Below, in pieces: positions 9,324 to 39,600 of a stretch of 64,000 nt of DNA. The DNA lies in the NCBI GenBank assembly GCA_026414305.1, contig JAOAJH010000003.1:64994-128993 (forward strand). The letters are read 5' to 3'. Position numbers and translations under genes: made by a program. This DNA is from Candidatus Aenigmatarchaeota archaeon. GTDB lineage: Archaea > Aenigmatarchaeota > Aenigmatarchaeia > CG10238-14. Every line of letters starts with the position of its first letter. The first letter of the stretch is position 1. Below the pieces are notes generated by a model. That model was not told the DNA's origin. It ran no database searches and was given only the letters and a program-made list of their open reading frames with translations.

Positions 9324-9351
9324 TTTTATCTATTCATACTAATTTCTTTTT

Positions 9352-11688: not shown

Positions 11689-11701
11689 ACAATGTCGCCT
11701 T

Positions 11702-12067: not shown

Positions 12068-12119
12068 TTCTTCTCAAAACATAATTTTAAATAAACCTAA
12101 ATTTAAATTAAACGATTGA

Positions 12120-12395: not shown

Positions 12396-13144
12396 GATTT
12401 GATTATCTTTTTTGTTGTCTTTAAGTGATGGTAAAAGCCATATGCTAGACTTAGATATGACAAAATCCAAAGTAAATCTATCCATTCGCCTGTTTCGTAA
12501 ATTTCAATAATATTGTAATATATTATATCTGCTATCAATATCAATGAAAATGACAAAAGAATTATGCTCCAAGATTTGAAAAATTCGCTTTTGCTAATAT
12601 TTGAAACAACAATAAAAGTCTTTAAAAGAAGTGATGAATCTAAAAACACATAACTCAAAATTAAGATTTCTTCAACTAGTGTAATACTTTTGGAACTAAA
12701 TTCAATAAGGATTAATGTAAATATTGTGACAAACAAGGTAATAATTGATGAAAAAACAATTTTTGTTGTTGTTATCTTTGATTTTGAAATTTTAAACAAA
12801 TTAAAGATGCCTATAATAAAAAATGGGTAACCTAATAGCCAGAAAAAGTCTGCTAGAGATATTTTAGGTGACATTATACCATTTAATTCATATAAAAACC
12901 ATGCTGTTTCTGCCAAAAACCATGATAATGCGCCTAAAAACATGAAAAATAAAGATTTACCTTGAATGTTTTTATAACCATATGGTTTGTAAGCTAAAAA
13001 AGCAAACAAAAAGAACAAAGATGAATTTATTACAGGAAGCAAGTCTGCCAAAATATAAAAATTATCACCAAAAGGTCTAGTTATATATAAAGCAATATCA
13101 GCTAAACCTATTAAAACAAATAATATTATTGGATTTAATCTCAT
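12392..13144 (-). CDS. Multi-pass membrane protein (7-8 TM), possible membrane module of the adjacent histidine kinase
   Basis: 250 aa, highly hydrophobic throughout. Its start overlaps the histidine kinase stop by 4 nt. Confidence 0.5.
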   Translation of the reverse strand: MRLNPIILFVLIGLADIALYITRPFGDNFYILADLLPVINSSLFFLFAFLAYKPYGYKNIQGKSLFFMFLGALSWFLAETAWFLYELNGIMSPKISLADFFWLLGYPFFIIGIFNLFKISKSKITTTKIVFSSIITLFVTIFTLILIEFSSKSITLVEEILILSYVFLDSSLLLKTFIVVSNISKSEFFKSWSIILLSFSLILIADIIYYNIIEIYETGEWIDLLWILSYLSLAYGFYHHLKTTKKIIKS

Positions 13145-15690: not shown

Positions 15691-18600
15691 CTACCTCCTT
15701 TCCAAAGCTTTTAGCCTGCTGTCAACTGATTCAAGATATGTCTGAGCCATCTTGAACATACCCTGTTTCATTTTATCTTTTGCTATATTCAATTCTAATT
15801 CAACATCATAAGTATCAATCTTTCTTGCTTTCAACTTCTCTATTCTTTGATCTGCTTCATTTATCTTTTGCTGAGTAGCGTCATATTCAGCCAATTCCTC
15901 ATCTGTTAATCTGTGTGTGTCATGCAATAATGGTCTGAATGACAAGAACCATGGTTTACCTTCATTGTATTCTGGATTTTGCACTAAACCTGTACCTGTT
16001 GTTAGCTTTGTTATTCTAGCTGCATAATCAGCGCCATACTTTGTCTTTACTCTATTGATATCGCCTTCATACTTTGTTCTCAACTGTATTTCTGTTCCGA
16101 TGTTGGCTCTAATTGCGCCTCTGAAATCCATAAGGACTTGAGATATCATGAATAGACCGATACCCCACTTTCTGAATTCTCTTGCACCTCTTTCCAATGC
16201 TACAAAACCGCCTTTACCACCATATTTTGGAAGCAATCTATGAACTTCATCATACACCATTAATAGCTTTAGCTGTTTAGATTCTGGCAAGTTCATGTCG
16301 AATATTTCTTGTATAGATGCTCTTATCAGTGTGTCTATATCTGCCATCGACAATTTATTCATAACAAATACTGTTATTTCTCCTGGTTTCATGTATTGCT
16401 TCAAATTCAACTTCATGTGTGGATCTTTTACTATTATTATATTTGTCTTGAAACCTCTTGCATCTTCTCTCTTTAAGCCGAATTGTGGATATAACTTGAA
16501 CATTTCTTCATCTTTACATGGCCTTATGAAACCAGTCCATTGTGCAGTTGGATCAAATACAATTACAGGTATGTCCCTCTTTAATAACTCTTCAGCAGTT
16601 GCCATAGCTGATACTGTTTTACCTGAACCAGTACCACCTGCAGCTAAGCTATGCATTACAAGTTTGTTTATATCTGTGTAAGCGTTTATATCAGTTTCAG
16701 CTACTTTACCAACCAAAACTGTGTTTGGACCTGGTTGTGGCAGCTTTTTAACATCAACCGGGAATATGTACTTTGCTTTTATCTTCTTCATTGTTGTATA
16801 ATATCTGTAAGCTCTGTAGCCAATTATAGTTGCCGGAGCTATCAATAACAAAACAGCATATGTTATCCAACTTGTTGCTAAAGCCTTCAATATTATTAAT
16901 GGTGCTGGAAGATAAACAACATCAAATGCTGTTGCTGCTCTAGCAACTTTCTTTCCATACCAATATGAAGCTGTTACCTCTAGTATGTATCTTTCTGTTG
17001 GTGTATCTTCTGGTATATCAAACGTCTTAATAAATGTTAAAACGTCTTCAACTGCAACTGTTTCCTGAGATCTTGTAATAACCTCTTCTGTCTTAAGATT
17101 CCTCAATGTGTAATTCAAAACAATATCCTCAACTTTTGCAGTTTGACCCATGTTCAAAACTGTTACTTGGAATTTAGCCTGGTGCCCAGGCTGAACTGAT
17201 TTTGTTAATGATTCTACTTTTACATCAAGCAATGGTTCTGGACCATAATCAACTTTTATCGTAATTGGTGTTCTGTGCTGTTTATCTCCAATTGTTGTAA
17301 CAAGATCAGCTGTGTATATACCAGGTTGATTTGATGGTAATGCAAATACTTTAACTTTAATTACTTTGGTTGATTTAGGTGCAACTGTAAAGCTTGATTC
17401 TTCAAGCATTATCATTTCCCATGCAAATCCTTCTACTTTAATTTCACCTTTCATCTCACTCTCTTCATTGTTTGTTATTTCAATTGAATGTATCTCTTCC
17501 TCTCCTGGCTTCAAAGTCACAAACAACAAAGTTGATTTAATTGAAAATGGCACACCTGGAATTGTTATTTGACCTAAACCTGCTCCTCCGGCTCCGCCAC
17601 CGCCTCCACCTGCACCACCTGCCGCACCACCTGCTGCTTGCGGTGGTAATGTAACTGGTGGTGGTAATGGACAATCAGCTGGACATGTAAATGTTGATTC
17701 ACCATAACCATGATCGCATGTGTTATCTCCACATATATATGGAGCTAATGCATATGCACCTGAAATATTGCCTGTTACTTGAGCTGTAGCTGTGTGCAAT
17801 GTTGAATTGACTGTTGTTGTTAATCTTGTCCATGAACCCAAACATCCTGTTTTTCTTACCCAATTATCGCACCTGAATAAAGCTAATGATCCTTCAAAGA
17901 ATGCAGCTGGTCTGCAATCATTATTCATCTTGCATATTGTCTTGCTCATATAATCGCTGTAATCAAATGTTATGCTTGTGTTTGTTGTATTCAATACAGT
18001 TTCAATATACAGTCCTTGCAGAGTGCCTATACTAACTCTTTCAGAAGGTATGTCACCAAATATCATTGGATTAAAAACATCTGTTATTATTTCAACATTT
18101 CTTGAAAGTATTGTTGAATTGAAAATTGATGCTTGCAGGTCATATCTTCTTGCATCTATCAATACATTGTAATAACCATTAGCCATATTTGGTGTGATAT
18201 TAAACAGCATTTGTGTTGTGTCAGGTTGATATAAAGTGAAGTTTACAAATGTTATCGGTTCTGCAGCATGCTCATAATCTTTTGAATATCCATGGAATAA
18301 AGCTGCAGGATATATCTGAAATTCAGATGATGCATTTCCACAATTATTTGAATAATCACAAGCTGTTGCATTGATTGTATAAACACCTAACAAGGTTGTG
18401 TTTGTTATGTTGTACTGATAATAGTATGTATTATTGACTCTGTACAAGAATATAAATGAAATTTGTTGTGTTCTGTTGTCTGGATATGTTATTATAGCTG
18501 GAACATTTCTCAAATTACCTTCTTCGTATGCTATGCCATTAACTGTTGCAACATAACCAGCTGGAACTTTGGATGGAACTATCAAAGTCAATTGAGGTGG

Positions 18601-21600
18601 TATTGAATCCATGTAATTTATAGACCTATATTCAACATCACTTCTTATCAAATTGTCAAACGTATCATTTGCTGTTATATTCAAATCATATGCTCTATTT
18701 TCTGGAAGCATTGGTGCTGTAAAGTTGACTATCCATAATTGTTGTGATGGTGAATAGTAAGCAGAGTCAACAACAACTGCTTGCGAAAATGATTCGTTGA
18801 AAATTCTGACAAAGAATGTTACATTATCTGTCAACACTTGACCAAATGTGACATTAACTCTTGCTGATATAGTGTCGCCAAATGTTATTCCTGTTATTGG
18901 ATTTGTTGACGTTGGATATTTAATGTCAACATAATATGGCGTGACATGCAAGCTAACAAATGTTGATTTTTGTTGATCAGCCGTTGTATTTCCTGTAGTT
19001 ATATAGCCAGTAAAGTTGCTTATTTGAGCTATGTTAGGCACAGTGTAATTTATTTTAATTGTATAGACAGCTCCAATTGGAATTGTAATGTATGATTCTG
19101 CCAAAGATAGATAAGATGATATATTTCCTGTCTTTTCAACTTTCAAAAGCAATGGAGTATTACCTGTATTTTGCAATTCAATGCTTCCATAATAGCCATA
19201 TGAATCACCTAAGACGTTTCTATATATTTCTAGAGGTGACTGAGTCCAAGACAAATTCATTGGTACAATGACATATATTGGAACATTCATCGAAATGTTT
19301 GTTGCATTTACTTGTATAGTTCCATTGTATGTACCCAGTGGATATTGTCTAGGCACTGCAACTGAAATGTTGACATAAGCTGCTTCTGAAACATTCAATC
19401 TGCTGATAAATGATGGTATGAATGATATATTGAAATCTTGGCATACTGTTCCGGATAAGCAAGAAAATGTTATGTTTGTAACATCGTCATTACCTATTGA
19501 TTGAATAGTCAAAGTACCATTATTTTCAGTGCCGTCTGGAACATACACAGTAACATTGGAAGATAAATTCAATTTTGGATTTGACAAAACTTCAAATTCT
19601 AATTGGCTCAACGATTCATCAGTTGTATTGTCTAGATTAATCCATGAGTTGCTAAAGTTAAGCATGTATTTTCCTGGCTTTGTTGCAGGTGATATGTTGA
19701 CTAAAACTAAATCTGAATATGATTGAGTCTTTAATATCAAATTATAAAAGCTGTTGTTAATGTTTGTTGAAAGGTTCTGCGGTGATGTTATGTTGACAGA
19801 AACATTGAATGCTCTTGAATTTCCTATGTTGTTTGTAGAAACATTTAATACATATTGTTTTCCTTCAAATAATGTTATATTGGATACGTCAACTTTGGAA
19901 ACATTGAATGATTGATTGATTTGTGTTTTGCCAGATGCTAATACTGGTATTGGATTAGTGCATGCTATCAATGATTGAGTATCGTTTGCGCATATGCTTA
20001 TGTTGTGATAGCCGTGTATATTTGTTGAATAAACAGCAGAATAATATTTTCCAGTTGGCTGTATAGGCTGTTGTATTGATGATCCGTTTGGCAATGTGAC
20101 ATTAATGAATGCATAAGAAACTGCAAAATTATCTGTTATAATAGCTGAGATGTTTGTGTTTTCATAAATCATTTCAAATGTTTGAGGTATGATGCTAACA
20201 TTGCTTATAATAGGAGGTATATCTGTCACGTTTAGCCAGAAGCTTGTCTTGTATTCTTGAGGCATTGCTGTTGTGTTTGTTATTATTATCTCAGCATAAT
20301 ACATTCCTTGTGCTGATACATATGATGCTGGAATTGTATAATTGACGCTGACATTTCTCACTGCACCATTGTCCAAACTGAAAGCAGATGGATAAATGTT
20401 AAACAGCTGTGAAGCATTTTGCTGCTTGTATGCATTGAAAATTATTCTTATGTTTGCAAAACTTGTTGTTGTTATATCGCCTATATAACCAGTTGTGTTT
20501 GGTGGTGCTAGTATTATGCCAAAGCTATCTGGTGATCTTTGCCATGAAGCATTCAATGGAACTGTTATATACAAAGGCATCAAATCAGGTGCTGTTTCTG
20601 GTGATGATGCTCTTACATATGTCCAATAAGTTCCTGGAGGTTGAGCTATTGGAACTTGAACCTTTAAATCGACAATAAAGTTTGCACCTGCTTCAAGCAA
20701 ACCCCATTCATTTGGAACTATGATTATCTGACATTCAGGACATAATGTTGAAATGTTGCCACCTACTGTTGTTACAGTAATATCTGTTATCAAATCATTT
20801 CCTATTGAACTCACATTTACATCAGGTATATCTGTCAATTTGTCATGCGGTGTTATTGCTGTAACATTTTCTTCTATTATATCTATGATTTTGTTTGATA
20901 TTATGATGAAATTCGTATCTTCTGAGTCTATGCCTAAACTTTGATCAGGATTTCTCCAAACAGCATCTGTTATAAGCTTTAACACAGAAGGTGGTGTTGC
21001 AGCTGGAACTGTGACAAGCAATCCAAATATACATGAACTTTGATTGTAAACAATACCACATTGATGCATTGTCTCGTTAAATATTAATGAATTCAAAGGA
21101 TCTGCTGTGAATGTTAAATTGACGCCATATGCTGTCGCTGGGCCAGTGTTTGTAAAGTTTATTGTAATTGCTGCTGATTCTGAATTTACCCATGTTATTC
21201 CATTTATTTGTATTTCGTCGGGTTGTGTAACAATTCCGTCTGTTTTGCCGTTTACATAGAAATATCCAACAAATGTGTTATTGATATTGTTTTCAGGTGG
21301 ATTATCGACTGCAAATATTGTGACATTGTATACCCCGCCTATAGGAGGCAAATAAAATAATGAATATAGGTTTGATCCCATGTGAGACAATGTTAAATTG
21401 ACATATGTTCCATTAGGTGTTCCTATCCTAGCAAATACATTACTTACGCCTATATCATCTATTACAACTGCTGATATATTTGTATAATTCAAATTAGCTT
21501 CTAAACCATAAATTGGATGTATGCTTTGATTATATATTTGTGGTGGTCTTGTATCTCTTACTGTTATTGATGCTAAAGCTTCTGGTATGTTTGGTGTATA

Positions 21601-24600
21601 TAGCTTGACATAATCGTTTGTTATGTTGCATCTAAATGTTATCGTTCCTTTTTGTATTGGTTCAAATGTGTTTGTAGCATGTCCAGATGCATTTGTGAGT
21701 AGCGTTCCGTTATATATGTACCCTGGTGTATAGTTGTACCAGAAATCAACTAAATAGTTTGCTATGCCAACGCCTGTACTTGAATCAACAACTCTACAAA
21801 CTGTATTAAATGGTAAAGGATATGGCATTATGCTGCCATCTTGTGGATAAATCCATTGTACATCAGCCAAGCTACTTACAGTTATTATCAATGTCTGTTC
21901 GCCTTTGTCATAATAATCTCTTGTTGCGTTTGCGGTTAATGTATGGTTGCCTGTTGTTTGATCAAGCAAAAGCCAATTTGTATTTTCACCTGATGCAACT
22001 AGAGCTGTTTCGTTAAACCATCTTAAATTCGATGAAGTGGGTTGATTTGATTCATCGACGACTGAAGCTGACAAAACAAGATTGTCTGTTTTTGCCCAGA
22101 AGCTATTGTTTTGAGGTGATGATATATTCAAATAAAGTTTACCTCTCACTTCTATTGTGGTTGTGTTTGTTTCTGAATCTTCCAATCCTGATTTAGTTGC
22201 GTTTATGTATATAGTGTAAACATTTGGTGTAACTGTATCGCTTGGATTGAAATTTATGGTACAAATACCACTTGAGTTTGTCATGCAATAGTCAATTAAT
22301 GCTGTTGAATTGTAAAATGTGATATTTGCATTGTTTGCATCTCCAACCAAAGAATCTCTAACTTTCACTGTTATATTCACATTGTTCGGTTCAAAACTAT
22401 TGTTTCTATAAACAAATGGTGCGTCTTTTTGAATTGTCTGAATTATTAATGGTCTTTTTATTAATATCTGAACTTCATCTTGTTTCTTTGATGCATTATA
22501 GAAAAGAATATTATTGTCAGATATTGAACAAGTGATATTATACCAACCAGGTGTTTCTGCTAACGTTTGCCATAACCAGACAGCTTCACCTTCAGAGTTT
22601 GTCAATTGTGAATCCTGGAATGTACCATTTTTGTAAAAGTTGACAGTATAACCTTGCAATGGTGATGTTGTGTTTTGATCAGTTACTTTGCATTTGACAT
22701 TTACTGAAAATCCTGCAAGATAATTTGAAGCATTTATTGGATTTTCTATTAAAACACCACTCCAACCATAAATGTACACATTTGTGAAATTGCTGTTTTT
22801 ATCATAATATGTTCTGCTTGTGTTTACGTAAATTGTTTCTGGACCAAGTTGATAGAAAGTTGGTATTTGCCATGTTGTGCTATAACCATTTGCAATATTG
22901 TAAAATGTTTCGTTATACCAATTAACAGTTGAGTCATTAACAGCAACTAGACATTCATCAAAAACATTTGTTGTAAGGTTTGCATATTGATTTCTGTTTA
23001 ATATTTGCTGATTGTAAGGTGATTGTATTGATGTATTCAACTGAGCTATGACTGTTAGTTGAGTCGGCACTGTTTGTACATATTCATAGCAGCTATCATC
23101 TGTTTTTCCTATCCATTGCTGCACTCCAGCTAAAGAAGAACAGTCAGGGTTATAATAGACATAACATTGACCTGTTGAATCTGTTGTACAATTCATAACA
23201 TAAGAGTAATTTGTATAATCCAAAGTAATGTTGACTTTTCCACTTGCCAAAGGTGCATATCTTCCATAATCATAATCATAAATTGTAAAGTTTAGTAATG
23301 CTAAATTGTTTCCTATCCTTCTAACAGTTGAGTTAGACAAACCAACAACTAAGCTAACATTATCGTATTCCAGCGTGAAATTCATTACTGTTGTATTTGC
23401 CGAATAGCCGAATTGATCAACTGTTGTGAAATAGAAATAATTGAATCCCATGTCACTGCAATTAAACTTCTTTGAAAATACAACATCCTGATTGACAGCA
23501 TTGCTAACATTTCTTGAATCAACCAATGTCCAGTTAATACCGTCAAAGCTCTTCCAGACAGAAACATTATTTATGTTAAGATCAAAATCTGTTACTCTTA
23601 CTGCAAAGTCATATGTCTCTCCCCATCCGCCTCTGTAATGATTATTCAATATTCTTGGATTGCTTAATGATGGTAAAGTACCTAAGAAGTATGCATCATC
23701 TCTAAAGCTGCTGTTTAATGCATAATAATTCTTTGTAACGCTAAACAACAAATCGTAATAGCCGTATGGTCTGTTTGTTGAAACCCATGTACAATTATAC
23801 CATCCGTTTGCTTCTGTCTTGTTAAAGCAACCGTATTCATTTATTCCTATGTAAGAAGTCCATGTTGATGTAGCACCTGAAACTAAACCACAATCATCAT
23901 ACACTCTACCAACAAATGGAACTGGGTTTGATCTTATAAATCCTTGGCCGTATGGAAAATCTATTTGTGGCCTCAATTCAGATTTAATTGTTATTGTATA
24001 ATTTGTTGAATTCTTGTCTTTATAGCAAGCATCATCATAAACTCCTGCTATCCATTTTTGCGGTCCTGTCAAATAATCGCATTCAGGTTGAGGTGCTTCT
24101 GAAGTGAATAAATAATTCAAATGGCTGGAGATATTTGTCGTAGTCTGTTTGCCAATGTCAAATGAAAGATAATTGGTTGTAACCCAGAACATGCCATTAT
24201 AGCCTGCTCCTGGATATGTGTTTTTATCACTGTCATAAACTCTTACGCTTAGCCTTCTATTATCAGTTCCGTTTCTCCAAACTTCATCTCCATTTCCAGA
24301 TTCTAATGTGAGTATAACATCATCTTTGGTCAAATTAAATGTTTTATTCCATGGCTCAATTAATGTACTGTTTGTTAGATAGGATCTTGTATCTAAAGCT
24401 GAAATTTCAAATTGTTGTTGATAATCTTGATCTGCGCATGTAAATCCTTGATATGTCATGATTACAGTGGAATTCAATGGTGAAGATACTGTTGTGAAAT
24501 TGATTTGATTCCAGTCATCAAAAACAACTGATTTGTAATAAAGACTGACAACAACATCATCTAAATCTTCATCTGTGACATTTGCTGTGAATGTATATCT

Positions 24601-27600
24601 CTCTCCCCAACCCCAATCTTGCGCAGGTGTTATTGTTAAATTCTGTACAATTGGTTTTGTTTTTACAAAGAACGGTCTTATATGCAGTGAAATGTTTGAA
24701 TTATAGTATTGCTGACTGGAATTAACAGAAACGTTATACCATCTTGCCCTCATTCCTGTTGTGTTTTTCTCACAATAATAAATTCCGCCGCCTATTGTTG
24801 TTACTGGCTCGCATCCATAGACATTTCCATATTCACTTGTCAAATTCAATATTATATTGGCATTTTCAACAGGAGCTGCACAATCATCAATTTCTTCCAA
24901 AGCAAATGTAACATTTTCTTCTCCTCTTAAATAACTGTCGCCTGTAGGTCCTGTTAATTTATTGATTATGTCTCCTATTATGTAAACTGTGTAGTTTTCA
25001 GTTGTATTAATATTCTTGTAGCATATGTTGTTGTTAGCGCCAACTTTCCAATATTGCAAACCAAGGTTGTTAAATGTACACGATGGATTGAATGAATAAT
25101 TGAGCGTTCCATTGAACGATGTTTTTGGTGTTGAATTTTCTATAAAGTTTGACTGATCAACTGTAACATATACAGACATGTTAACATTTGAAGGATACAA
25201 GTTGCTATCCAAATCATAAACTTGTAAAACAAAGTTTGTTGATTGAGAGCCGCTTCTATTTACATATGATTGATTTCCGCTGATATAATACAATTGAACA
25301 TCGTTTGGTTCTATGACAAGATTTGTGTTGTTTGTTGTGTTAAATGTATTTGTACCATCGTAAACTTCAAACATATATCTGTTATCATTTCCTATATCGC
25401 CACAATCAAATGTTGATACATTGACTTGACATCTTCCATAACCATTGTAAATTGTTGAATTGCCTTTGTTCATCCATGTTAATCCATTATTGGTTGACAC
25501 TAATAAAGTACATGTTACATTATCTTTCTGTAAATCATCTACATCCAAACTAAATGTAAATGTTCTGCCCCAACCTTCTGATGTTGGTGTAACAGATAGG
25601 TTTTCTACATAAGGCGGTGTATTGACAAGATATAGCCATTGAGATAATAGCGTACTGTTAGAATAATAATATGTCTTTGATGAATTTAGTCTTATATCCC
25701 AATAACCACCTTGATGTAAAGTTGTGTTCCAAGTGCAATTGTATATATTTTGTGAAGATGTTACAGGCAAGCATGATTCATAAATTCCTGAAGGCGATCT
25801 AAATTCTATTTTGCCGTTTGATTGATTTACAGGCAAAGAGCATTCATCAAGTACTGCAAATGTTGTGTTTACATAATTGCCTACTGCAAATGTTGTGTTG
25901 TATGGTGGTGATAATATATAATTCTTTAATTGACCTGTTATCTCTATTGTAAATCCAAAGTCAGGATTATTATCTTTGTAACAAACATCGTCATATATAC
26001 CTGCTCTCCATTTTTGTACGCCAACATTGTATGTACAATTAGGATCAAAATAATAGCTTAAATAGCTTGAAGAGTCTGTTGTATTTATTGCGCTTAAAAT
26101 ATAATTTACACCATCTGTTGTTATCCAAACAGAACCGTTTATATTTGGCCCGACAAGATAATCATCTCTATCAAAATCTCTTATTTGAACTCTTATCAGT
26201 TCATAATCGTTGTATTCCCTATCAACTTGAGTTCCTGCACCTGATACATACTCAATCGTTGTATCGTCTTTGTCTATGTTGAACGGTGATGTATAATTAT
26301 TTGAATAGCCCCATACATCTGTTACTTTGAACATAAATTGTCTCTGGCCGATATTCTCACAGGCAAATGTTTTGTCTGGAAAATCAACTTGTTGTGGTCC
26401 ACTTACTATTGTTGAGTCAGCTAACTGCCAACTACCTGTCAAGTTAAACCATAATGACACATTGTAATAATCACCGTCCAAATCTTGTGTTATTGCTGTA
26501 AATAGCCAATTCTCACCCCAACCACCATCTTGTTCTGGTGTAGCTGTTGGCGGTGGTGTTAGCAATATCTCTGGTTTTGTTGCCAAATAAAATGCATTTG
26601 TTTTTTCCACAAACGTGCCATTGTAATACTGCTTGGAAACATCAACTGTTACATCATGCCATCCAGTATTCCATGTAGTTGTAGTTGAATAAGGTATTGT
26701 ACAATTGTAATAGCCATTGCCTTCATAGTAAACATTATTGCATTCATAACTTTCTGATGGAACATAAAACACAACAGTTGCGTTTGGCACACCACCACAG
26801 TCATCTGTAACTCTTACTCGCAATACAATATCATCAATGCCTCTTAATCTTGAAATACCGTCTGGGTTTGTAATATTAGCTGTCAATCCCACTGTAACAA
26901 TTGTCCAGTTGAAGATGCTTGAGTTTGTATCTTTGTAAGGAGTATTGCCATACAATTCGGCAAACCAATATTGCGGACCTACTTGGAAGGAACATTCTAA
27001 TGCTTGCAAATGAGCAATTTCACCTGAACTATTTGCAAATTTGTCTATTGTGTTTGTAAATGAAGAGCCATCTTTTGTAAACCAAAATCTACCTCTGCTA
27101 CCAGAAGGCAAATCATCCCATGGTGTTCTGTCAGTATCCCACATTCTTACTCTGAAGAAGAGACTACCTTCTGTTCTGTTCACAACTGTTGAATTTCCAT
27201 AAGTATGATTTATGTAAACATCATCTTTCTGCAGACTTATATTCAATTCTTGTGTTTGATCTATATCATTTTCTGTTGGTATAACTTCATCTTGTGTTCT
27301 GAAATAATATTTTGTTAAGTTGTTTAATGAATTGATATAATCGCTTGAGCTGAATAGATTTACTTGAATAAATGTTACTGTTTGATTTATGCCTGATATA
27401 GTTGTTGTGTTTGAGTTAGTCCAGCCACTTGATTTGTTGACCCACAACCTTAATGTATTTGGATCCAAATCTTCATCTGTAAAGTTGACAGTGAAAATAT
27501 ATGTTTCGCCCCAACCACCATCACCAGAAGCTGTAACTGTTGGGTTATTTAATTCTGGTTTTGTCTCTATCCAAAATGCATTTGACTTTGTTGTATAATT

Positions 27601-30600
27601 GAAATTGTATAATGTTTTAACGCTAAATGCTGTAACATTCCACCATCTTGCCGCATATGTTGAAGTATTAAATGTGCAGTTATAAAGTCCTGTATTTTCA
27701 TTCAATATAGGAGTGCATAAATATTGAGTTGAATCTTTAACATTTGTGAAGTTTATTGTGACAGATTCATTCATTACTTCATTTGAACAATCACTTGAAA
27801 CATTCACTTTGATAGTAATGTTACTTCCTCTCAAAAATTCTTGACTGCTTGGTTGAATTATGTTGTTAAATAGTGTGCCATTTACATGAACTAAATATTC
27901 GGTTGAATTTATGTCTACATAGCATTTGTCATTGCTAACACCACCTATCCATTTTTGTGTTCCTGGTATATACATACAAGTTGGCAAAAAGCTGTGCAAA
28001 ACATAACCAAGCAAATCTGTTTTTGTTTGATTTACAAGTGTATAATTGTAATAATCATAAGTTATCCAAAAACTTGTGTTAGCATTGTAAACAAAGGTTT
28101 GATTTTCTGTATCATAAACCCTAACAACTAATGGTTTTGTTTGGAAACTTCTATTGACAAATGTATTGTTACCTTGATGAAGCTGCACTTGAACAGATGA
28201 TTCTGTAATATTTGGACCTGCATATACTGTTGTGTTATATGCATTAGCGGGCTCACCATTGACAATTTGCCATTTATAGTAAATATCTTTTCCTATGTCA
28301 TCACAGCTAAAGTCATGTACAGTTACAAAACATTTACCCAAGCCATTTTGAAGCAAATAACTTCCTTTGTACTCCCATGTTAATTGATTGTCTTTACTTA
28401 CAAACAAACTGCAGTTTATATCTTCTCTTTCTGGATCATCTATATCTATGGTATAATTATATAATCTGCTCCATCCACCTATTCCTGGCGCTAAAGTTAC
28501 ATTATCATATGTTGAATTTAGATTTTCAAGCCAGAACCAATTTGTATACATGGACGAATTAAATGCAAAATATGGTGTCTTTGTGCTATTAAGCGTTATT
28601 GACCAATATCCCTCTTTTTTGTGAGTGGAATTCCATGTACAATTGTACCATCCATTGTATTCATTGTAAACAGGTGTGCATGTTTCCCAAACATTCAATG
28701 GTGATCTCAAAGAAATAGTTGGTGTAGCATTTGCTATTATTCCTTCGGTCAAGCATTCAGTTGTTGTATTGAATCTTATTGCTATTAAATCTGTTACATT
28801 ATAGACGCTATTGTAGCTTGGTAGTTGTATATTGTTCCTCAATTGAGCTGTAACTTCAAATTGAGGTGCGAATGACAAATTCTTGTTTTTATAGCAACTA
28901 TCTTGATAAACTCCTGCTATCCATCTCTGCATGCCGTATCCATAATTGCAATCTGGGTCAAAATCATAATTTGCATAACCACTTGAATTTATTTGTACAA
29001 ATCTTCCACTGTCATAATTGTTTCCATCAACAGTTATCCACATTGCTGTGTTTGTAGATGTGTTTATAACATAACTGTTGCTATCAGTATCTAAAACTCT
29101 ATAGATGAATCTACCTGTAGTTGAGTTAGCTCTGTATATTGATGATGGTTGATCAACAAACTCTATTGCAACATCGCTTTTATCAATTGTGAATGTCGAT
29201 GACGTTTCGTTTTTGTAATTCCATTGATCTGTTACATTCCATTTGTATGATTTTATTCCGATATCACCACATGAAAACTTGTTGTACAAAAATGTTATTG
29301 CCTTCCAACTTGCACAATTTGGATTGTCTATTGCTGAACATATTGTGCTGTTTATTAATTGATAACCGCTGCCAAAATCAATCCACAGGCTTATGTTCAA
29401 TTTTTCAAAATTGTAAACATTTTGATCGACATCTCTTACAATTGCAGTGAAATTCCATGTTTCAGACCATCCATATGGTGATAATGAATCTGATGTTGTT
29501 GGAGCATATGCTGTTATTTCTGGGTTTGTTACAAGCACAAATGAATCTTGTTTGTAAGCAGTGTTCGATGCGTTGTAATATTGCTTGGATGCATTGAATT
29601 CAAGATCATAATATGTCAAGCCTGCTGTTGGCGGCGAATATAACGTGCAATTATATGTTCCATTCAAATTGTCAGTTGGTGAATTGCATGTTGTCCATGA
29701 ATATTCAGGATATGCTTTGAAAAATGCCGTGGCTTGTGTCAAACCGCCGCAATCATCGCTTGCATAAGCTATCAATGGTATTGGATCTATTACTCTTCTG
29801 AAAGTCTGATTGTTTGGACCGATTATTTGCAAAGCTATTTCATGTGTTGTTATATTTATTGAAAATTCAGAACTGTTTGTAGTTTTGTAAGCATATGATC
29901 CAAATTCAACTTTCCATTTTTGTGGTCCAATTCCATATGTACATCTAGAAAGTGTTGGAAATGTATTTGTTAAATAGCTGCCACCTTCTATTGATGATAA
30001 TGTTTTATCTATCACATAACTATTAGCATTATTAGGATCTGTTGTAACATAGAAATAACCTGTTCCTGGTTCACCTGGCGAAATTGCTACATTTCTATCT
30101 ACATCAAAAACTTTAACTCTCAAAGTAACTGTTTGTGTTGTGCTTCTGTTTATTACAACATTGTCGCCTTCAATTAAAGTGATGTTTATTGTATCTTTAT
30201 CTATTGTGAATGTACCAATAGTTGTGTTAGCTGAGTTCAAGCCATCTGTTGAATTGAAGAAATATTCCCAGTTGCCTATATCTAAAGCTGTAAAGTCTGT
30301 TTTAACAAATTGCACTTGCTGCGGCGACGATGATGCTGAAACTAGAGATGTCTTTGCAAGCCAAAAGTTTGTTGGAGTGCAATCGCCGCCAACACATCTT
30401 ATCCATAAGCTCACATTATTGACGTCATTATCATCATCTCTTACATAAACACTAAATGTATGTGGAGCGCCCCAACCACCTGTTAATGGAGATGTTGTTG
30501 GATTTGCTAAAACAGGTCTTGTAGATACAAAGAATGCCTGTGTCTTTATTGTATTATTCGGAGTCAAATACTGAAATCCGGAAGAGTTCATTCTTATGTT

Positions 30601-33600
30601 ATACCATTGAGTTGGTTTTGATGTAGTATCAAAACTACAATTGTAATAGCCATTTCCTTCATTTGTAAATGAACCTGGCGTACATGAATATTGATTTGAT
30701 GTGCCTATGTGAATTATTGTAAAGTTGACTGTTGCATTATTTATTAATCCCTCATTTGACGGGCAATCTGTTGTTACATTTGCTCTTATTGTAACATTTT
30801 GTTCGTCTCTATTGTACTTTTCTCCATTCGGTATTGCAATATTATTTATCAAATTTCCAAATATTGTCAAATTGTACACAGATGATGAAGCATCATTGTA
30901 ACATTGATCACCACCTGTAGCACCTGATTTGTAAGCAAACCATTTTTGGTCTCCAACATTGTAAGAACAGCTTGGATTGAATCTATATGTTACATTTCCT
31001 CTCAATGTTGTGTTTGATCCATCAATGACGTAAGAGACACCATTAATTGTAACATTGAAATAGACTGTTGCATTTCCGGATGTGCCATTTCCAACAGGCC
31101 ATGCTTTTGTTGTGTCATTTACAAAAACTCTTAATGTTGTAAATTCATTTCCAGTTCTATTTACAATTGTGTTGTTGCCTGAGAGCAATGTTATAGTTAT
31201 GTTATTTCTTTCTATTATAGGACCTTCTTCGCTTGAAATGTTGAATGGTGTGTGATAACCGTCTGTTATTTCAAATTTAAACCAGTTATCGCTACCAACA
31301 TCTGTATATGTTGCATTGCAATTGAAATTTGAGACAACAAAGCTACATAATCCAGAGCTCCCTATTGTTCTTTGTCCTTGTCTTCTCCATGTATTACCAT
31401 CATCTGTTGATGTATACAAAACACATGTTATTGGATCGCCGTCAGAATCTGTTAAATAGACAGAGTAATTGTAAACATCGCCCCATCCTCCCATTGTTGG
31501 TGTTACTGTAGGTATGGTTGTGTTTGTTGGATTTGCGTTGTATATTTCAAACCAATCTGGAAATACCGTTTGTTTTGTGTTAAAGTATTGCTTTGAGCTT
31601 GTGAATTTTATATCCCAAAATCCTGGTTGTTTGAATGAGCTATTCCACGAACAATTGTAAACACCATAAGTTGAATTTACAGGCGAACATGTTTCCCAAG
31701 ATGCTCCATTTAAGCTTAACTCTATTGTCGGTGTTACATTTATCAAAGGTGCTTCATCTGATCTTGTATATGTACAATCACTTGTCGTGTTGTATTTTAT
31801 TTCTATAACTGATCCTGTTGGGTAAGATGATAAATAGTCTGGTAACTCGAGATTATTGTAGATGCTGCCTTTGATTATGAATGAATCTTGTTCTGTTGTT
31901 GTTTTATAACAAACATCATTGTAAACTTGTGCTCTCCATTGTTGTATGCCAACTGAATAAGTGCAGTCTGGGTCTAAATAATAATTAATATAACCGCTGC
32001 TGTTTGTTTGCAAATTAAAATCATTCCAACTGTTTGGATCGCTTGAATTGTATGTTACTCTTATCCTGGTAGATACATCTTGTCCTACAGGGGTAGAATA
32101 TCTATCTAAATCTGTCACAAGTGCGCTTAAAAGAATTTGATCCAAACCTTCTCTGTTTAATTCATAGCCAGTTGTGGATGAGATGAAAATTTCTGTATCA
32201 TCCTCCTGTAACGTGAAAGTGCTGTTTATCTCATCTTTGAAACCGAAATCGTCTGAAACGTTGAATTTGAAAAGCTTTAATCCTAAATCAGATGCTTGAG
32301 TGCAATTGAACGTGTTGTAAAATGTTATTGTTGATGGATCTATACCATTCCTCCAATATGTTTGATTAAATAAAACCCAATTGCCATCTAAATTCATCCA
32401 TAAGTAAACTGTAGAATTATCATTGTCTGGATCTATTAAATCGACTGAAAAACTCCATAATTCTCCCCACCCGCCAACATTTGAACCTTGTTGAGACAGC
32501 ACAACTATGTTTGATAATTCAGGTGCTGTACCTATTCTAAATGATCTATGTTCTATATAAACAGGTGACGATTCGTAATATTGTTTGCTAGCATTTACAG
32601 AAACGTTGTACCATCCTGTTGGCCAATCTTCTGAAAATATCTGTGACGCAGATAATGTACAATTGTAAATACCATTACCTTCATCTAACGTTGGATTAAA
32701 TGGATCGTTCGGATTACATATACCTCTCACAACACCACTAGCATCAATTGCCCTTATTGTAACATTAGCGTTTCTAACCAAACCACAATCGTCTGTCAAG
32801 TTTACTTTGATCACAACATTATCAATACCTTTTAATGCTGTTTGGTTTTTAGGTGATATTACTCTCGCTTGTAGTGGTTGAGCAATTATTGTAAAGAATG
32901 AAACGCTTGAATTGCTTGATTTGTATGGTGTTTCATCATAAATCTCTGCTTTCCATTTCTGAGGACCGACAGTGAATTTACAATCTGGTTTTGAGTAATT
33001 TGTCGCATAACCCCATCCTGCTGATGATGGTTGCTCGCCTGTACCATTTGTTCTTAAGGCAGGTGGGGAAACAATTGTATAGTTTTCATTGTTATCATTT
33101 GTCATCAAAAATCTTATTCTTCTGTTACCTAGAGTCGTATCATACTTGTCTGCATCCCACAATCTTACTGTCATTGTAAAGTTGGAGACAGACAAAGGTG
33201 ATGATCTATTGACGACTGTATTGTTGCCTTCTATATATTGAACAAATGTGTCGTCTTTATCAAGATAGAAAGTTCCATTGCCTGTTTCATTTACATTTTG
33301 TATGAAATCAACTGTGTTTTCAGTAACATTGTATTTGAATTTGAATGCCTTGTTTGCAAATGTTGATGTAAATGTCACGTTGAAATAAACTGTTTGATTT
33401 ACACCTGAAACTGTGTTGTTTGATGCTCTGAATGTCCATATTTCTGGATCTACTGTTGAATTTACCCATAATCTTAATGTCAAAACATCCATATCTTCAT
33501 CTGTCACATTAGTTGCAAATAGCCAATATTCACCCCAACCACCATCTCCTGCTGGCACTGGTGTTAATGGCAAATAAGGTTCTATAACAGGTTTTGTTTC

Positions 33601-36600
33601 AACCCAATATCCTCTTTGATTAGCTTGATAAACATGAATTGTGTAATTGTTATTGTAATTTGCAAGAGATGCATTCATTGTTACATTCCAAGCGCCAGCT
33701 TGATAGCTTGACGTGTCTATTGTACAATTGTAATTGCTGTTCAATTCATTAATTATTGGGTTGCAATAAATGTTTTGTGAGAAGCGATTTGATGTAAAGT
33801 TAACGGCTGCATTTGTTATAGGCAATTGACAATCATCTGATATATTTGCTCTTATGTAAACATATTCGCCGTCTGGATAGCTTGTTCGCAAATATTTTTC
33901 ACCTTTTGGTGCATTGATAAAGAGCTGTAAATCGCCAAGTATATTCACAGTAAAGTTGGTTGTTGTGTTTATGCTGTTGTAGCATGCATCGTTTGTTATT
34001 CCTGCTAGCCAGAATTGTCTGCCTAGAGTGTATGATGGTGATGAGCAGTTTGGATTGAAATAGAAATTCAAATAACCTGTGGAGTTTGTTTGTATATTGA
34101 AAGATGACCCATAAAATGAACCGTCAGTTGTTATCCATATTGTTGCGTTTGCGTTTGATGCTTTGACATTCTTTGTTATGTCAGTTGCATTTATTACAAA
34201 CAATGTTGTTTGATCTGCTGTTCTGTTTACAAACGAATTGTTGCCCAGTATGTAAACAAGCTGAACATTGTCTTTCACTATTGTCGGACCATTTGAAACA
34301 CTTGTGTTAAATCTTGTGAATGTATCATTTATTTCAAATCTAAATGATGCCAATCCTTGTTCATTGCAGTTAAAGTCATTAACAACAATCGAACAATTTC
34401 CAGGTGCTGTTATTGTGTTTGACCCTTTGTATATCCATGTTCCAGTTGTATTAGTATATAGCGAGCATGTAACTGTATCATTTTCTTCATCGAATATTTC
34501 TGCCGTATATGTGTATGTATCACCCCACCCTGAAACTTGTGGTGTTACTGACATGTTTGTCACATTTGGCTGTCTGTTTCTCAAATAAAACCAATCTACG
34601 TATAATGTTGAATTGTAATTGTAGTATGATTTTTGAACAGTTATGTTGACTGTATAATTGCCTTGCGCCTTGTTTGTTGTATCCCATGTGCAATTATAAT
34701 TGCCTGTTGATTCTTGATTGATTGGTGTACAGCTGAATGTGTTGTTTATTGTCAGCTGGCTTGAATCAACAGAAATGTTTCCATTATCTTCGGCTCCTTG
34801 CAAATAACAATCAGAATAAGTTGAATATTTGAATGTTACATTGTCAGTTACATTGAATTGAGTGTATTGTGGTGGTCTATATAGCAATGTATTTAATTGA
34901 CCATATATATTCATTGAAGGATAAGGCGCTGTCATGTTGCTGTCTTTGTAGCATGTGTTGCCTATGATGCCTGCTCTCCAATATTGCAAGCCTACTCTAT
35001 AATTGCAGTTTGGATTGAATAGATATGATAAACTGCCATTAACAGTTGTGTTGCTCCATCCAGCATCGAATGTTGGATTCATTGGTTCTGTGCTAAACCA
35101 TAGATAGCCTGTTATTTGTGATGTTGGTTCTTCACTGCTGTTTACAGTTACGTTTCTTCTATCTGTATCATTTACAATGACAATGAAGTTATATACATTG
35201 CCTGTATTCAAATTGCTTCTATTTATTATAGCACCGTTTCCTTGAACTATTGTGAATATGACATCATCTTTTTCAAAGTTGATCGTGAAATTGCTTGTTT
35301 CTGCTTTCAAACCATAAGAGTCTGATGTGTTGAATTTAAATCTTACTATAGGACCGTTTACATAATCTTCGCAACTGAAAATAGGATAGAAGAAGAATGT
35401 TTGTTGGCTTAAGCAAGACTCGCAATTTTGTTGAGAAACTTTTATCCATTCACCGCCATAACTCTTCCACAAACTTATGTTCAAATAATCTCCTGGATCA
35501 GAATCTTGCGCTGAAACATTGAATGTAAAGTTGTAACCCCATCCTTCTGTTGTTGGATAAACTTGATGGTTGTTTAATTGTGGCGAATATCTGATTCTGA
35601 ATGCGTTTTCTTTGAATGTAGAAGCTGAAGTATAGAAAGCTTTAGAAGCATCAGCGGTTTGATTGTAATCGCCTGTTCCTAAAACAGATGTTATAAGAGT
35701 GCAAGAATATTGTCCGTCTGGTGAGCCAGTGTTGTTTGAACAGCTTATGCCTTCGCCTGCTACTGATATCTGGACAGAAGCACCTTGAACATACTCGCAT
35801 TCATCAGAAACATTTGCAACTGTAAACACATTATATCCAACTGGATAATATTCTCCTGATGGTCTTGTTATCAAAACATTCAAAGAAGAATTGATAAACA
35901 AAGTAAAGTTTGATGATGTGTTTGCATAATAGTATATGCCTGGTTCTGTGCTGCTTGAAAATGTTGCATTCCACCATTGCATTCCTGTTCTGAAAAAGTC
36001 GATGCCACCATCAGTAGCAGGGCATGTTGGGTTGAAAGAAAATTCTGCATAACCAGGACCGCTTTGACCAGTTGTGTTTGATCTTGGTGTTGTTGACCAA
36101 ACATTGCCATTTTGTGTAAACCAGAAATTAACTGATAATCCGTTCAAAGGTTCATCAGCACCGCCGTCAACACCAACTCTAAACAATCTTACTCTAACTT
36201 GAGTTGTGTTGCTTCCTAATCTGCTTACACTTGTGTCATTTCCAGAAACATATGTAATGTATACAGGTCTTTTTGTAACATTGAATGTGTAAATTGATGA
36301 AGAAGCTGAGCCATTATATAAATCAGATGCATTGATAAACCATTCATAATTGCCTATGTTGACGCCGTCTGGATATTTCTTTGTAAGCACAAGCTGCTGA
36401 TTGATGTAATCATAAACAATTGATGAATTTGCTAGCTGGAATTGTGAAGATGGATCACAACCGTTTGGCGTTATGTTGCCACCAATACATCTCACCCATA
36501 GACTGACATTGACATAATCATCATCATCTGTTACATTAACTCTGAATGAGAAGGTTGAACCCCACCAAGTTGAATTTGGTGATACAAATAAAGATGTTAG

Positions 36601-39600
36601 CTGTGGATTGACTTGATGGAAGAATGATTGGCTTTTGAATAAGCTAGCATTATTGTAGTAATTCTTTGAAGAATTCATTGTTATTGAATACCAACCAGAC
36701 GGGTTGTTTGATATATTCCAAGTGCAGTTATACCAACCATTTCCAAATGAATAATCTATGCAATAATCAACAAAATTGCTGTGGTTGAGTTTTAATGTTA
36801 TGTTTGCGTTTGTTATAGGTATTAAACACTCGTCAGTTATGTTGGTTTTTATTGAAACATTTTGGTTTGAATAGTATACTTGACCATTTGGCGAAGATAT
36901 TGTGTTGTTTAGCCATCCAAATATTGTTATGTTGAGTTGAGATGTTATATTGCTGTCTTTGTAACAAGCATCATTGTATATTCCTCCCTTCCATTGTTGC
37001 AAGCCAGGCTGATAGCTGCAATTTGGTGAGAAATAATAGCTTATATATCCTTGACTATCTGTTTGATTGGCATTACCTAAATCAAAATCAACATAATTTG
37101 TTGTAACAAATATTCTTGCATTCAATCCAGCAGGTACATAACTTTTGTTATCAGTATCATAAACTCTTAGCCTTAGCTGCTTATACTCTGATCTATTCAC
37201 AGCAGAATTGTTTCCTGTTGACAAGTCAATGTATCTGGCATCAACATCATTTTTGTTGACAGTAAAGCTTATGCCTCCTGTGTCTGTTTTATTGTAAACA
37301 TCACTTGCATTGAACTTGAAATAATATTGTGGTATTGCGCTGCAGTCTAAACCTTTATAATAGAACGTTAATTGCTGTTTGCTTCCACAGTTGTAGCATA
37401 TCTGAGATGATATAAATTGCCATGTTTGATTATCTGGTGAAAGCCATAAACTGACATTTATGTCTTGAGCATTTTGATCGCTTACATTGACTATAAATGT
37501 AAAGTTTTCACCCCAACCCCAATCTTGCTCAGGCAAAACTGTCACATTTTCTAAAACAGGTGGAACCCATTGTTGCACAACACGGAATTTGTTTGTTGCA
37601 AGCACAGTTGCATTGTTGTAATATTGAACATTGGTTGCATTCATTCTTATGTTGTACCAACCTTCTTGTATTTCTGTTGCGTTCAAAGTGCAGTTATAGC
37701 TTCCATCATTGTTGTTGCTAACAGGTGAGCATTGATAGCTGTTTCCGAAGCCAACGCTTATTGCTGTAAATGTAACTGTAGCATTTTCATTGTAACGCAA
37801 ATTGCATTCATCTGTCACTGTTCCGTTTATTGGAATATATAACAAAAGATTTCTAAAGTATGTCTCACCATCAGGATAAGTTACATTTGGTGTTAAATCA
37901 GCTATTATTGTAACATTGTATTCTTGCGCTGTCGAGTCTTTATAGCATGAATCAGATGAAGTATAACCTTGCCAGTTGAATTTTCCTGGTTCATAACTGC
38001 ATGATGGATTGAAATTGTATTCAACATAACCTGTTGTATTAGTAGTGTTAGATCCATCAACCAAATAGGATGTGCCGTTGAAAACTCTAAACCACACTTG
38101 AGGTTTGGCAGATGCACCAAGCAAATAATAAGCTGGTTGATTTTTATCTGTGTCATTGACAAATAAAACAAATTTTGTTGAGTTGATGCCATTTCTATTT
38201 ACAATAGAATCATGACCTGATGAATAGCTTATAACAATATCATTTTTCACAAGGACGTGAGATTGTTCGGTTGTGTTTGAATTTGTAGCTGGCACGCCTG
38301 GCTCACTTGCATTAAATGCATAATATCTTAAAGCAGATGCTTGATATTGATCGCATGTATAATCTTTTGTGAAATTAACCATTGTATTTTGTGGATTGCT
38401 GATGTATTTACATTCTGTGACTTGCCATTGAGTTGCTGGCGTCCTTTCAAGCAAACAAACATTCACAGGTGCATAATGGGTAGCATAAACAGTAAAGTTG
38501 TGCAACTCACCCCAGCTACCATCGCCTGGATAGATGACTTGCGGTGAGCTAAGCTGAACAGGTGTAACAAGGAAGAATGCATTTTGTTGATAATCGCTGC
38601 CGTTTATGTGATAGTCTTTGCTTGACTCCATAGTTACATTGTAAAATCCTCCTGGTTTGCCAGTTGAATCCCATGTACACAAATAATAGTTGCCGGTAGA
38701 GTTTGTAATATAGCCAGAGACTGGACAATAATAAACATTTGATCCTGACTGAAGTTTGAATCTAACATTAGCATTTGTTACAGCTTGTGAACAATCATCT
38801 GTTATTTCGCCTAAAAGAAGGATTTGATCATTTTGAGTATAATTTACTGTTCCGTCTGGTAAAATTAAATTGTTTATTAGGCTGCCGTAAATGTTGACGA
38901 AAAATTCTTGAGATGTGTTTGTTGAGTAGCATGATGATGTTGTGTTTACTTTCCATTTTTGCATTCCAGATTGAAACGTACAATTTGGATTAAAGTCAAA
39001 ATAATAATGAGATGTGTTGCTTAATTCAAACTCCTCTATGTATTGGCTACCTGTGTTAATCCAAGTGTAGACGTCTGAAGTTGATATTGCTGTTTCATAT
39101 TTTCTAGTTACTAAATTGAATATTTGAACAGCCAATCTTCTTTGATTGCTTGGTTCTGTATCACTTCTGTTTACATCTGTGTTATTGCCTTGCGAATGCA
39201 AAATTGATATATCTGATTTTGTAACATTGAAAATAAATGTTGATGTTAAATTAGTGAATGATGTTGCTGATGTTGCATTGAATTGAAGCTGCCATTCGCC
39301 TATATTATAGCAGCTGAAATTGTTTTGTGTCAAGAAATAATAGTTATTGCAATTATTGCAGGTAGTAGTGTTTTGTACAAACCAATTGTCTGTTTGATTT
39401 CTCAACCACAATCTTGTTAAAACAGATTCATTATCAACATTTGTAACATAAACAGAAAAGTTGAATGGTTTTAATTCCCAGCTGCCTGTTGGATATGGTT
39501 GTATTTGTACATTGTTTAATTGTGGTGTGGATGACAAGAAAAATGCATTTTGTTTGAAAAAGCTGCTATTCCAATATTTACCTTCTTCTGTGCCTTCTGT

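Follow-up and report, generated by a model that had tools for sequence, protein, structure and literature searches.

Introduction

The giant gene that takes up 33.7 kb of the DNA analysed here, a 64,000-nucleotide stretch from Candidatus Aenigmatarchaeota archaeon (GenBank assembly GCA_026414305.1, contig JAOAJH010000003.1, positions 64,994 to 128,993, forward strand; hereafter the window), has its closest described relatives in the SPEARE proteins of nanohaloarchaea. Hamm et al. (2019) reported very long nanohaloarchaeal proteins that are mostly extracytoplasmic and have a transmembrane (TM) segment near the C-terminus; the type protein is NAR1_1133 of Ca. Nanohaloarchaeum antarcticus (5,998 aa), the sequence of which is in the supplementary information (PMC6642349). 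The cytoplasmic region was found to be the most conserved and was read as type III restriction enzyme-like, similar sequences were noted in Woesearchaeota, Aenigmarchaeota, Micrarchaeota and Altiarchaeales, adhesion-type domains including at least one laminin-G were attributed to the ectodomain, shorter versions (717 and 655 aa) were described, and the protein was detected by proteomics, the ecto part in a different gel size fraction from the TM/cytoplasmic part (PMC6642349). Reva et al. (2023) described SVXNc_0300 (9,409 aa) and BNXNv_0298 (8,880 aa) from cultured nanohaloarchaea, each made up of a signal peptide, an immunoglobulin (Ig)-like ectodomain, a TM segment, a cytosolic VirB4/TraG-like ATPase and a terminal coiled coil, and proposed that they form a "straw" resembling a type IV secretion system (T4SS); they found that the next gene encodes a VirB4-like ATPase with PF03135, and disputed the protease and nuclease domains even of type SPEARE proteins (PMC10266531). 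A SPEARE of 12,127 aa with TM helices at both ends is known from KA27, a metagenome-assembled genome (MAG) of EX4484-52 (PMC8470020).

In this study, we sought to place the giant gene of the window (Table 1) and to explain the ATPase at the C-terminus of its product. By sequence, this product is almost certainly an Aenigmatarchaeota member of the SPEARE family. What is new here is the HerA-type character of the tail, which has no HAS barrel, the conservation of a trans-acting finger, a coiled-coil partner, a setting without a T4SS, and the scale of the family.

Results

Comparison with described SPEARE proteins

Reading-frame analysis on the minus strand showed that positions 15694-16912 encode residues ~10,843-11,248 of the giant protein. 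This tail is 43% identical over 359 aa to the tail of the type SPEARE (E 7e-109), and the two proteins also have in common a giant extracytoplasmic part and one C-proximal TM helix. Unlike the type SPEARE, the window protein comes from another phylum, has a non-halophilic amino-acid composition, and shows no serine-protease, laminin-G or toxin-like domains detected by Pfam, its ectodomain being dominated by super-repeats of ~1,000 aa. Short versions of ~650-720 aa exist in both groups, and in both several copies per genome are possible. The resemblance to SVXNc_0300 and BNXNv_0298 extends from the signal peptide and the Ig-like-rich ectodomain through the TM helix to the cytosolic FtsK/HerA-superfamily ATPase and the terminal coiled coil, and TM helices at both ends are shared with the KA27 SPEARE. 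The initial annotation, made from the DNA letters alone, regarded a cytoplasmic motor attached to a giant ectodomain as an architecture not known before; it had already been published as SPEARE (PMC6642349, PMC10266531, PMC8470020). In the literature we found no description of the DPANN giant, or of the Aenigmarchaeota ATPase, under the names HerA or DUF87. A 91% identical homologue, P0001, was considered as a candidate for RLG14629.1 of Hamm et al. and rejected, as it is MCX8179663.1.

The tail is closest to HerA and retains a complete catalytic set

Pfam matched the tail to DUF87, the HerA central domain (E 6.4e-10, 39.9 bits vs a cut-off of 23.2), and to HerA_C (30.3 bits vs 22), and every match in PDB sequence and profile searches was HerA. 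An AlphaFold2 (AF2) model of the tail, made from 64 homologues (pLDDT 91.7, pTM 0.84), retrieved HerA structures first in Foldseek, then FtsK and TcpA. The FtsK_SpoIIIE motor domain was below the Pfam threshold, and the NCBIfam equivalogs CedD (29.2 bits vs 600), CedB (16.2 vs 700) and HerA were all far below their cut-offs. HerA is the nearest relative of the tail by every method, and the VirB4/TraG-like label names the right superfamily. The assignment to the FtsK/HerA superfamily made in the initial annotation therefore stands, and the strings that it quoted for the helix, the basic stretch, Walker A and Walker B were all found in the translation.

The catalytic set is invariant in 64 of 64 aligned homologues and comprises Walker A G-G-G-K, Walker B D-E-x-H-R, the motif R-E-F-R-K-x-G, and S-Q. 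Walker B aligns to VYEEAH of HerA. The arginine finger, which had been named as a feature to look for, is predicted in the invariant REFRKWG: Arg 11,089 and Lys 11,090 align with R455 and K456 of DUF4297-HerA (8xau), residues that contact ATP in trans from the adjacent subunit and are required for ATPase activity (PMC11291478). Since such a finger is only meaningful in an oligomer, its conservation points indirectly to an oligomeric ring, and the tail is likely an active ring ATPase, as judged from its residues. For FMISQV, we take the putative sensor role from the FtsK-HerA superfamily signature, as reportedly defined by Iyer et al. in 2004. The chain ends in a helical hairpin or coiled coil (helices 363-388, 394-408 and 412-431 of the tail model, pLDDT about 95).

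In these respects the tail resembles the HerA translocases (S. solfataricus HerA, 4d2i; SIR2-HerA, 8wiv; DUF4297-HerA, 8xau), which share Walker A and B, RE(G/F)RK(Y/W)G, the SQ sensor and a C-terminal helical extension. It is unlike them in that it has no HAS barrel and no NurA, SIR2 or DUF4297 partner, and in that it is anchored in the membrane and fused to an ectodomain. In the AF2 model the TM helix is followed by only ~45 residues, folded as one beta-hairpin, before the strand that leads to Walker A. The alignment with 4d2i covers that structure from residue ~119 onwards and begins directly after the TM helix of the tail, and the ATPase core starts at the point where the HAS barrel of HerA would end. 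The TM helix and the ectodomain sit where HerA has its N-terminal ring. By sequence, reliable alignment to HerA is confined to Walker A and to the stretch from Walker B to the sensor, too little to place the DNA-contacting pore loops residue by residue.

These results bear on both published readings of the tail. According to Hamm et al. (2019), the cytoplasmic region would be a type III restriction-like enzyme that degrades imported host DNA (PMC6642349), and weak ResIII (PF04851) and DEAD matches (E about 1e-3) do occur in the tail, as they do among the precomputed domains of some homologues. The ResIII match, however, is below its cut-off (19.5 bits vs 22.5), ResIII is a helicase module and not a nuclease, Pfam and NCBIfam profiles found no nuclease domain in the tail, and the fold is that of HerA/VirB4 and not of superfamily 2 helicases. 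Reva et al. reached the same verdict (PMC10266531). The sub-threshold ResIII match explains the original misreading, and restriction is, in our estimate, a highly improbable function that has effectively been refuted already. The "straw" of Reva et al. (2023), in which a VirB4/TraG-type secretion ATPase serves a giant channel that injects effectors into the host, gains some support from a T4SS-DNA_transf match above its cut-off (24.7 bits vs 20.1) and a weak match to TrwB_AAD_bind. The former covers only 50 of 468 profile positions, in the Walker A region, HerA scores above the alternatives by every method, and the PF03135 (CagE/TrbE/VirB) domain is absent from the tail of the giant protein.

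The ATPase is predicted to lie inside the cell

Composition differs sharply on the two sides of the C-proximal TM helix. All N-x-S/T sequons counted fall in the ectodomain (522 within residues 71-10,845, vs 0 in the tail), as do nearly all cysteines (180 vs 1), and Lys and Arg make up 6% of the ectodomain vs 16% of the tail. Sequon density in the ectodomain is 4.85 per 100 aa, compared with 1.9 expected from composition. The helix is followed by a basic flank, in keeping with the positive-inside rule. From the distribution of sequons, Cys and charge together with this flank, the N-terminal ~10,770 aa are predicted to be outside the cell and the ATPase in the cytoplasm, behind a single TM helix, as the initial annotation had proposed; a placement of the ATPase outside the cell, which would have contradicted it, was not observed.

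Hydrophobic segments occur in the giant protein only at residues 13-38 and 50-70 and at the one C-proximal site. The N-terminal pair is a probable signal or anchor that would place the downstream sequence outside the cell; many homologues also begin with a hydrophobic segment, and short forms have classical signal peptides.

Fusion of ectodomain and ATPase is the rule in a large DPANN family

A word-indexed search returned 359 matches, and an exhaustive search returned 988 cluster representatives (clustered at 50% identity) at E<=1e-3, of which 371 were at E<=1e-30. Representatives are up to 7,665 aa long, and the ATPase is nearly always C-terminal. A TM helix lies no more than 140 aa upstream of Walker A in 72 of the 86 homologues with a located Walker A, typically about 80 aa ahead of it. 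We also scanned one genome per species (GTDB) for loci, which gave at least 549 related loci, the best 80 of which were examined in detail. Most of these 80 belong to Aenigmatarchaeota, and the others include Micrarchaeota, Nanoarchaeia, Woese- and Parvarchaeota and Ca. Haiyanarchaeum. In 73 of the 80, the ATPase frame runs on upstream without a stop as far as the retrieved DNA reaches, and where a full 10-kb flank was available it is open in 41 of 44 loci, i.e. for at least ~3,760 aa. The search for a HerA-like domain behind a long ectodomain, which the initial annotation had recommended, was thus productive, and fusion of a giant ectodomain to the ATPase is the rule in this large DPANN family.

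Complete short forms of ~725 aa consist of a signal peptide, a Cys-rich knot, a Pro/Gly linker, a ~220-aa module, the TM helix and the ATPase. Because their juxtamembrane module is common to the window protein, the core unit is, by sequence comparison, [module]-TM-ATPase, and the giants would be N-terminal expansions of it. Giant and short copies, or two giants, can be found in one genome (L027 and L081 in one MAG, L073 and L079 in another). Five members (P0147, P0241, P0246, P0260 and P0176) have 450-700 residues after Walker A, compared with the usual ~315, and therefore have extra cytoplasmic C-terminal domains.

The ectodomain and the ATPase are encoded by one intact gene

With a G+C content of 33% in this genome region, a chance origin of the stop-free 33.7-kb frame is excluded. 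The closest genome, the Aenigmatarchaeota MAG GCA_038740195.1, is syntenic at 88% nucleotide identity, and its giant gene is intact and also called at 11,248 aa. Over their last 3,317 aa the proteins align with one gap at 93% identity, which rises to 99-100% in the tail and is 89-96% in the ectodomain. These protein identities, set against 88% nucleotide identity, indicate purifying selection along the whole of this compared stretch.

In one related locus, L001 (JGI 3300050342, 1-11203), the homologous giant gene runs for 8,615+ aa and then continues as five short open reading frames (ORFs) in different frames, with a 400-aa ATPase called separately, its start at the TM helix. The copy may be decaying or truly split, or the break may stem from sequencing errors. 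Such a fragmented 3' part is what would be seen if the ATPase were a separate gene that a sequencing frameshift or a chimeric assembly had joined to the giant ORF, a possibility to which we assign almost no weight for the window. The frame is continuous there, the same 11,248-aa gene is present in an independent genome, the frame is open upstream in all but seven of the 80 related loci, fused cluster representatives reach thousands of residues, and complete short forms hold ectodomain, TM helix and ATPase in one chain. The split arrangement of L001 is an exception among related loci, and the view that the ATPase is covalently part of the giant protein, with no frameshift, is upheld.

A coiled-coil gene accompanies the giant gene, and the window has no T4SS genes

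Directly downstream of the ATPase in the window is a gene for a coiled-coil protein (Table 1). In 76 of the 80 loci a homologue follows the ATPase on the ATPase strand, and in 71 it lies within 1.5 kb. The coiled-coil protein of the window matches its counterparts in L001 and L002 at E 3e-48 and E 5e-35, respectively. Its AF2 model is all-helix, a fold search with it found nothing at E<=0.001 (best E 1.4), and Pfam gave only sub-threshold SHOCT matches. At 29 of the 80 loci the retrieved downstream DNA (up to 10 kb) also encodes a ParA/MinD-like ATPase; a search of the window found neither this gene nor, the coiled-coil partner aside, other neighbours of related loci. The short form of ~722 aa is, in L002 (1-10066) and in L003 and L004, clustered with a beta-helix surface protein and small N-terminally anchored Ig-like proteins, and the same clusters hold the coiled-coil partner, an NPCBM_assoc-like protein of 306 aa and a MinD/ParA-like ATPase. 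These loci look like a dedicated surface-structure gene cluster.

The neighbourhood also bears on the "straw". In its favour, the gene that follows the giant gene in nanohaloarchaea is VirB4-like with PF03135 (PMC10266531), and cytoplasmic bridges have been observed in the nanohaloarchaeal system (PMC11001535). In the window and at 76 of 80 related loci, by contrast, the conserved gene next to the giant gene codes for a coiled coil where nanohaloarchaea have an ATPase; no VirB4, VirB6, VirD4 or other T4SS gene is among the window neighbours, and no effector has been identified. Reva et al. assign the tail to VirB4/TraG and a T4SS, whereas here HerA is the nearest clade, and we consider a secretion "straw" unlikely. 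The window neighbours also include no nuclease or channel protein, and neither NurA nor SIR2 was found among the neighbours scanned (coiled-coil protein, histidine kinase, winged helix-turn-helix (wHTH) protein and others).

Behind the partner gene, on its strand, genes are packed directly one after another over 11074-14256, among them a histidine kinase and a response regulator (Table 1). A two-component system as part of the giant-gene system was considered and rejected, since just 4 of the 80 loci have one close to the giant gene; this set probably reflects lineage-specific synteny. At the other end, a gene for a 285-aa winged-helix protein (HTH_11/MarR-like; 49430-50287, minus) shares 8 nt with the start of the giant gene and is possibly a dedicated regulator or a co-transcribed gene; a second wHTH gene is at 50533-50937 (plus). 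Elsewhere in the window there are two M29 aminopeptidase-like genes (3805-5139, plus; 56634-57608, minus) and an SPFH/Band-7 gene (2963-3706, minus), and the rest is housekeeping: alanyl-, tyrosyl/tryptophanyl- and class I aminoacyl-tRNA synthetases, Sua5, cytidylate kinase and tRNA-Arg, -Pro and -Ser.

Repeats and modules of the ectodomain

Pfam found scattered beta-sandwich matches in the ectodomain (MG2, NPCBM_assoc, DUF11, Big), most of it being without a Pfam match. No laminin-G domain was found there by Pfam at E<=0.01, and no serine-protease, toxin-like or other protease or nuclease domain was detected by Pfam in the giant protein; as Reva et al. dispute such domains in the type proteins too (PMC10266531), we do not count them as defining for the family. 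BLASTP of ectodomain chunks against themselves gave 275 off-diagonal high-scoring pairs with shifts of about 1,000, 2,000 and 3,000 aa, which correspond to roughly seven super-repeats of ~1,000 aa each, 33-40% identical to one another. Nearer the membrane, the linker has an equivalent Pro/Gly-rich stretch in the ~725-aa short forms. The juxtamembrane module that follows is common to these short members, visible in P0001, P0042, P0056 and P0058, and weakly similar to an NPCBM_assoc-bearing protein of locus L005; it probably consists of two beta-sandwich domains, judging from this similarity and the alignment. In L005 (5585-11410) and L001 (15470-20419), genes for separate MG2/NPCBM_assoc surface proteins of 1,650-1,950 aa follow the ATPase at a distance of a few kb, and these proteins are up to 35% identical to parts of the window ectodomain (~18.9-21.4 kb), which suggests that ectodomain modules may be exchanged between genes.

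Table 1. Features of the giant gene and of the genes downstream of it, in window coordinates
Feature	Residues	Position	Strand	Basis or remark
Giant gene, almost certainly SPEARE-family	11,248 aa plus stop codon	15691..49437	minus	single stop-free ORF
Two N-terminal hydrophobic segments, KK-containing loop between	13-38 and 50-70	49228..49401	minus	hydropathy scan, charge distribution
Predicted glycoprotein ectodomain, N/T/S/Y-rich	71-10,845 (~10,770 aa)	16903..49227	minus	522 N-glycosylation sequons, 180 Cys
Super-repeat region	~2,943-10,166	18940..40611	minus	chunk-against-self BLASTP
Pro/Gly/Ala-rich linker	10,593-10,623	17569..17661	minus	read from translation
Juxtamembrane module	10,624-10,845 (~220 aa)	16903..17568	minus	conserved in homologue alignment
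Single C-proximal TM helix PLIILKALATSWITYAVLLLIAPATIIGY	10,846-10,874	16816..16902	minus	hydropathy scan; long helix in AF2 model
Basic cytoplasmic flank YRAYRYYTTMKKIKAKY		16768..16818	minus	translation; consistent with positive-inside rule
RecA-like ATPase core, HerA/VirB4 branch	~10,891-11,176	15910..16767	minus	
Walker A AAGGTGSGKT, Lys 10,940	10,932-10,941	16615..16644	minus	G, G, G, K invariant, 64 homologues
Walker B LLMVYDEVH, Asp 11,063 and Glu 11,064	11,058-11,066	16240..16266	minus	D, E, H, R invariant
REFRKWG, predicted trans-acting arginine finger	Arg 11,089 and Lys 11,090	16162..16182	minus	invariant in family
FMISQV, sensor-1-like Ser-Gln		16135..16152	minus	S, Q invariant; aligns to HerA (S)QRP
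C-terminal helical hairpin or coiled coil	11,177-11,248	15694..15909	minus	AF2 model
Conserved partner gene, all-helical coiled coil, SHOCT-like hairpins, P/Q-rich linkers, no TM	462 aa	14257..15645	minus	
PAS-HisKA-HATPase kinase, cytoplasmic		13141-14256	minus	directly after partner gene
Multi-TM protein	250 aa	12392-13144	minus	overlaps kinase gene by 4 nt
REC-only response regulator		11702-12067	minus	
Protein of unknown function	204 aa	11074-11688	minus	

Discussion

We sought an explanation for a catalytically complete HerA-like ATPase that is predicted to hang, by one TM helix, beneath an ectodomain of more than ten thousand residues. The best explanation overall, and one that we hold to be probable, is that the SPEARE tail is a membrane-proximal ring motor at the contact between symbiont and host. 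Copies of the ATPase would come together just beneath the membrane as a ring, most likely hexameric, and its membrane-facing side would be the one on which HerA carries the HAS barrel, a geometry like that of FtsK, TrwB and EccC. Several TM helices and their ectodomains would thereby be held together as a single host-contact fibre, and the ring would hydrolyse ATP via the trans-acting Arg/Lys finger. Together with the downstream coiled-coil protein it might drive a polymer, either DNA or protein, through its central channel, or might mechanically organise the contact site. Ring assembly, substrate, direction of transport and the role in host contact are all points that we infer.

An N-terminal TM region followed by a ring ATPase under the membrane is also the plan of FtsK/SpoIIIE, VirD4/TrwB, EccC/EssC of type VII secretion systems, and CedB. 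Unlike the SPEARE tail, these have 2-4 TM segments per subunit and little or no ectodomain; in addition, the Pfam and NCBIfam scores of the tail for them are partial or below cut-off, and their partner machineries are absent here.

To our knowledge, the characterised members of the FtsK-HerA superfamily are translocases that thread DNA or a polypeptide, and for this reason we favour, among the specific functions, a polymer translocase at the symbiont-host contact, which we put forward tentatively, at somewhat less than an even chance. Several observations weigh against the ring motor as a whole and against a translocase in particular. With one TM helix per subunit a ring has only six, which could not form a pore wide enough to conduct DNA or protein, and no conserved gene for a membrane channel was found at the locus among the neighbours scanned. 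Nor do genes that would hint at a substrate, such as a nuclease, a relaxase or a secreted effector, recur in the vicinity, and neither the fold nor the function of the partner could be recognised. The mature protein may be cleaved, so that the ecto and TM/cytoplasmic parts are not one covalent unit, given that Hamm et al. found these parts in different gel size fractions (PMC6642349). Finally, the host association of the window organism is assumed from its lineage. As for the suggestion in the initial annotation that the ATPase might power export of its own ectodomain, this is the least likely function, considering that the N-terminus has its own hydrophobic signal and that the ATPase is translated last.

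Because six TM helices are too few for a pore and there is no conserved channel gene, a role without transport stays alive. Here the ring would act as a nucleotide-dependent organiser or switch that clusters and anchors adhesins and couples them to a coiled-coil scaffold, often together with a positioning ATPase of the MinD/ParA type, so that the contact site would be fixed or remodelled, or a mechanical signal passed inward. Besides the single TM helix, this would account for the conservation of a soluble 462-aa coiled-coil partner with SHOCT-like hairpins and for the ParA/MinD-like gene at 29 of 80 loci, and the helical hairpin of the tail itself could dock the partner. However, the members of the superfamily characterised so far are, as far as we know, polymer translocases, the catalytic residues, those of the trans finger among them, are all strictly conserved, which is more than a static scaffold would require, and ParA is absent from the window. 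We therefore consider an organiser somewhat unlikely, if less so than the secretion "straw".

Returning to the ring motor at the host contact, its most far-reaching form is one in which the SPEARE tail, the coiled-coil partner and, often, a MinD/ParA-like ATPase make up a hitherto unrecognised archaeal envelope-spanning machine, distinct from both T4SS and Ced. In such a machine, a HerA-type hexamer without HAS barrels would carry a tube or fibre of six ectodomains that reaches the host, and would pump host DNA or protein in, or symbiont material out. We regard this form as speculative and, like the "straw", unlikely.

Altogether, in many DPANN symbionts no genes stand out more than those of the SPEARE type, which here take up 33.7 kb of a small genome, and their published readings conflict, one being a restriction enzyme and the other a T4SS ATPase. 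The architecture itself was already in the literature; the present analysis extends the giant form of the family through Aenigmatarchaeota and other DPANN lineages. From its sequence, the best reading of the tail is a ring ATPase of the HerA/VirB4 branch that has kept its catalytic residues and has a TM helix in place of the HAS barrel. Outside the halophiles, the gene that constantly goes with it encodes a coiled-coil protein rather than part of a T4SS. Residues that can be mutated are now defined (K10940, D11063/E11064 and R11089/K11090), as is the partner, for use in the cultivable nanohaloarchaeal systems. If the envelope-spanning machine were real, it would be the long-sought conduit of exchange between DPANN archaea and their hosts, feeding a DPANN cell that is auxotrophic for nucleotides and lipids.

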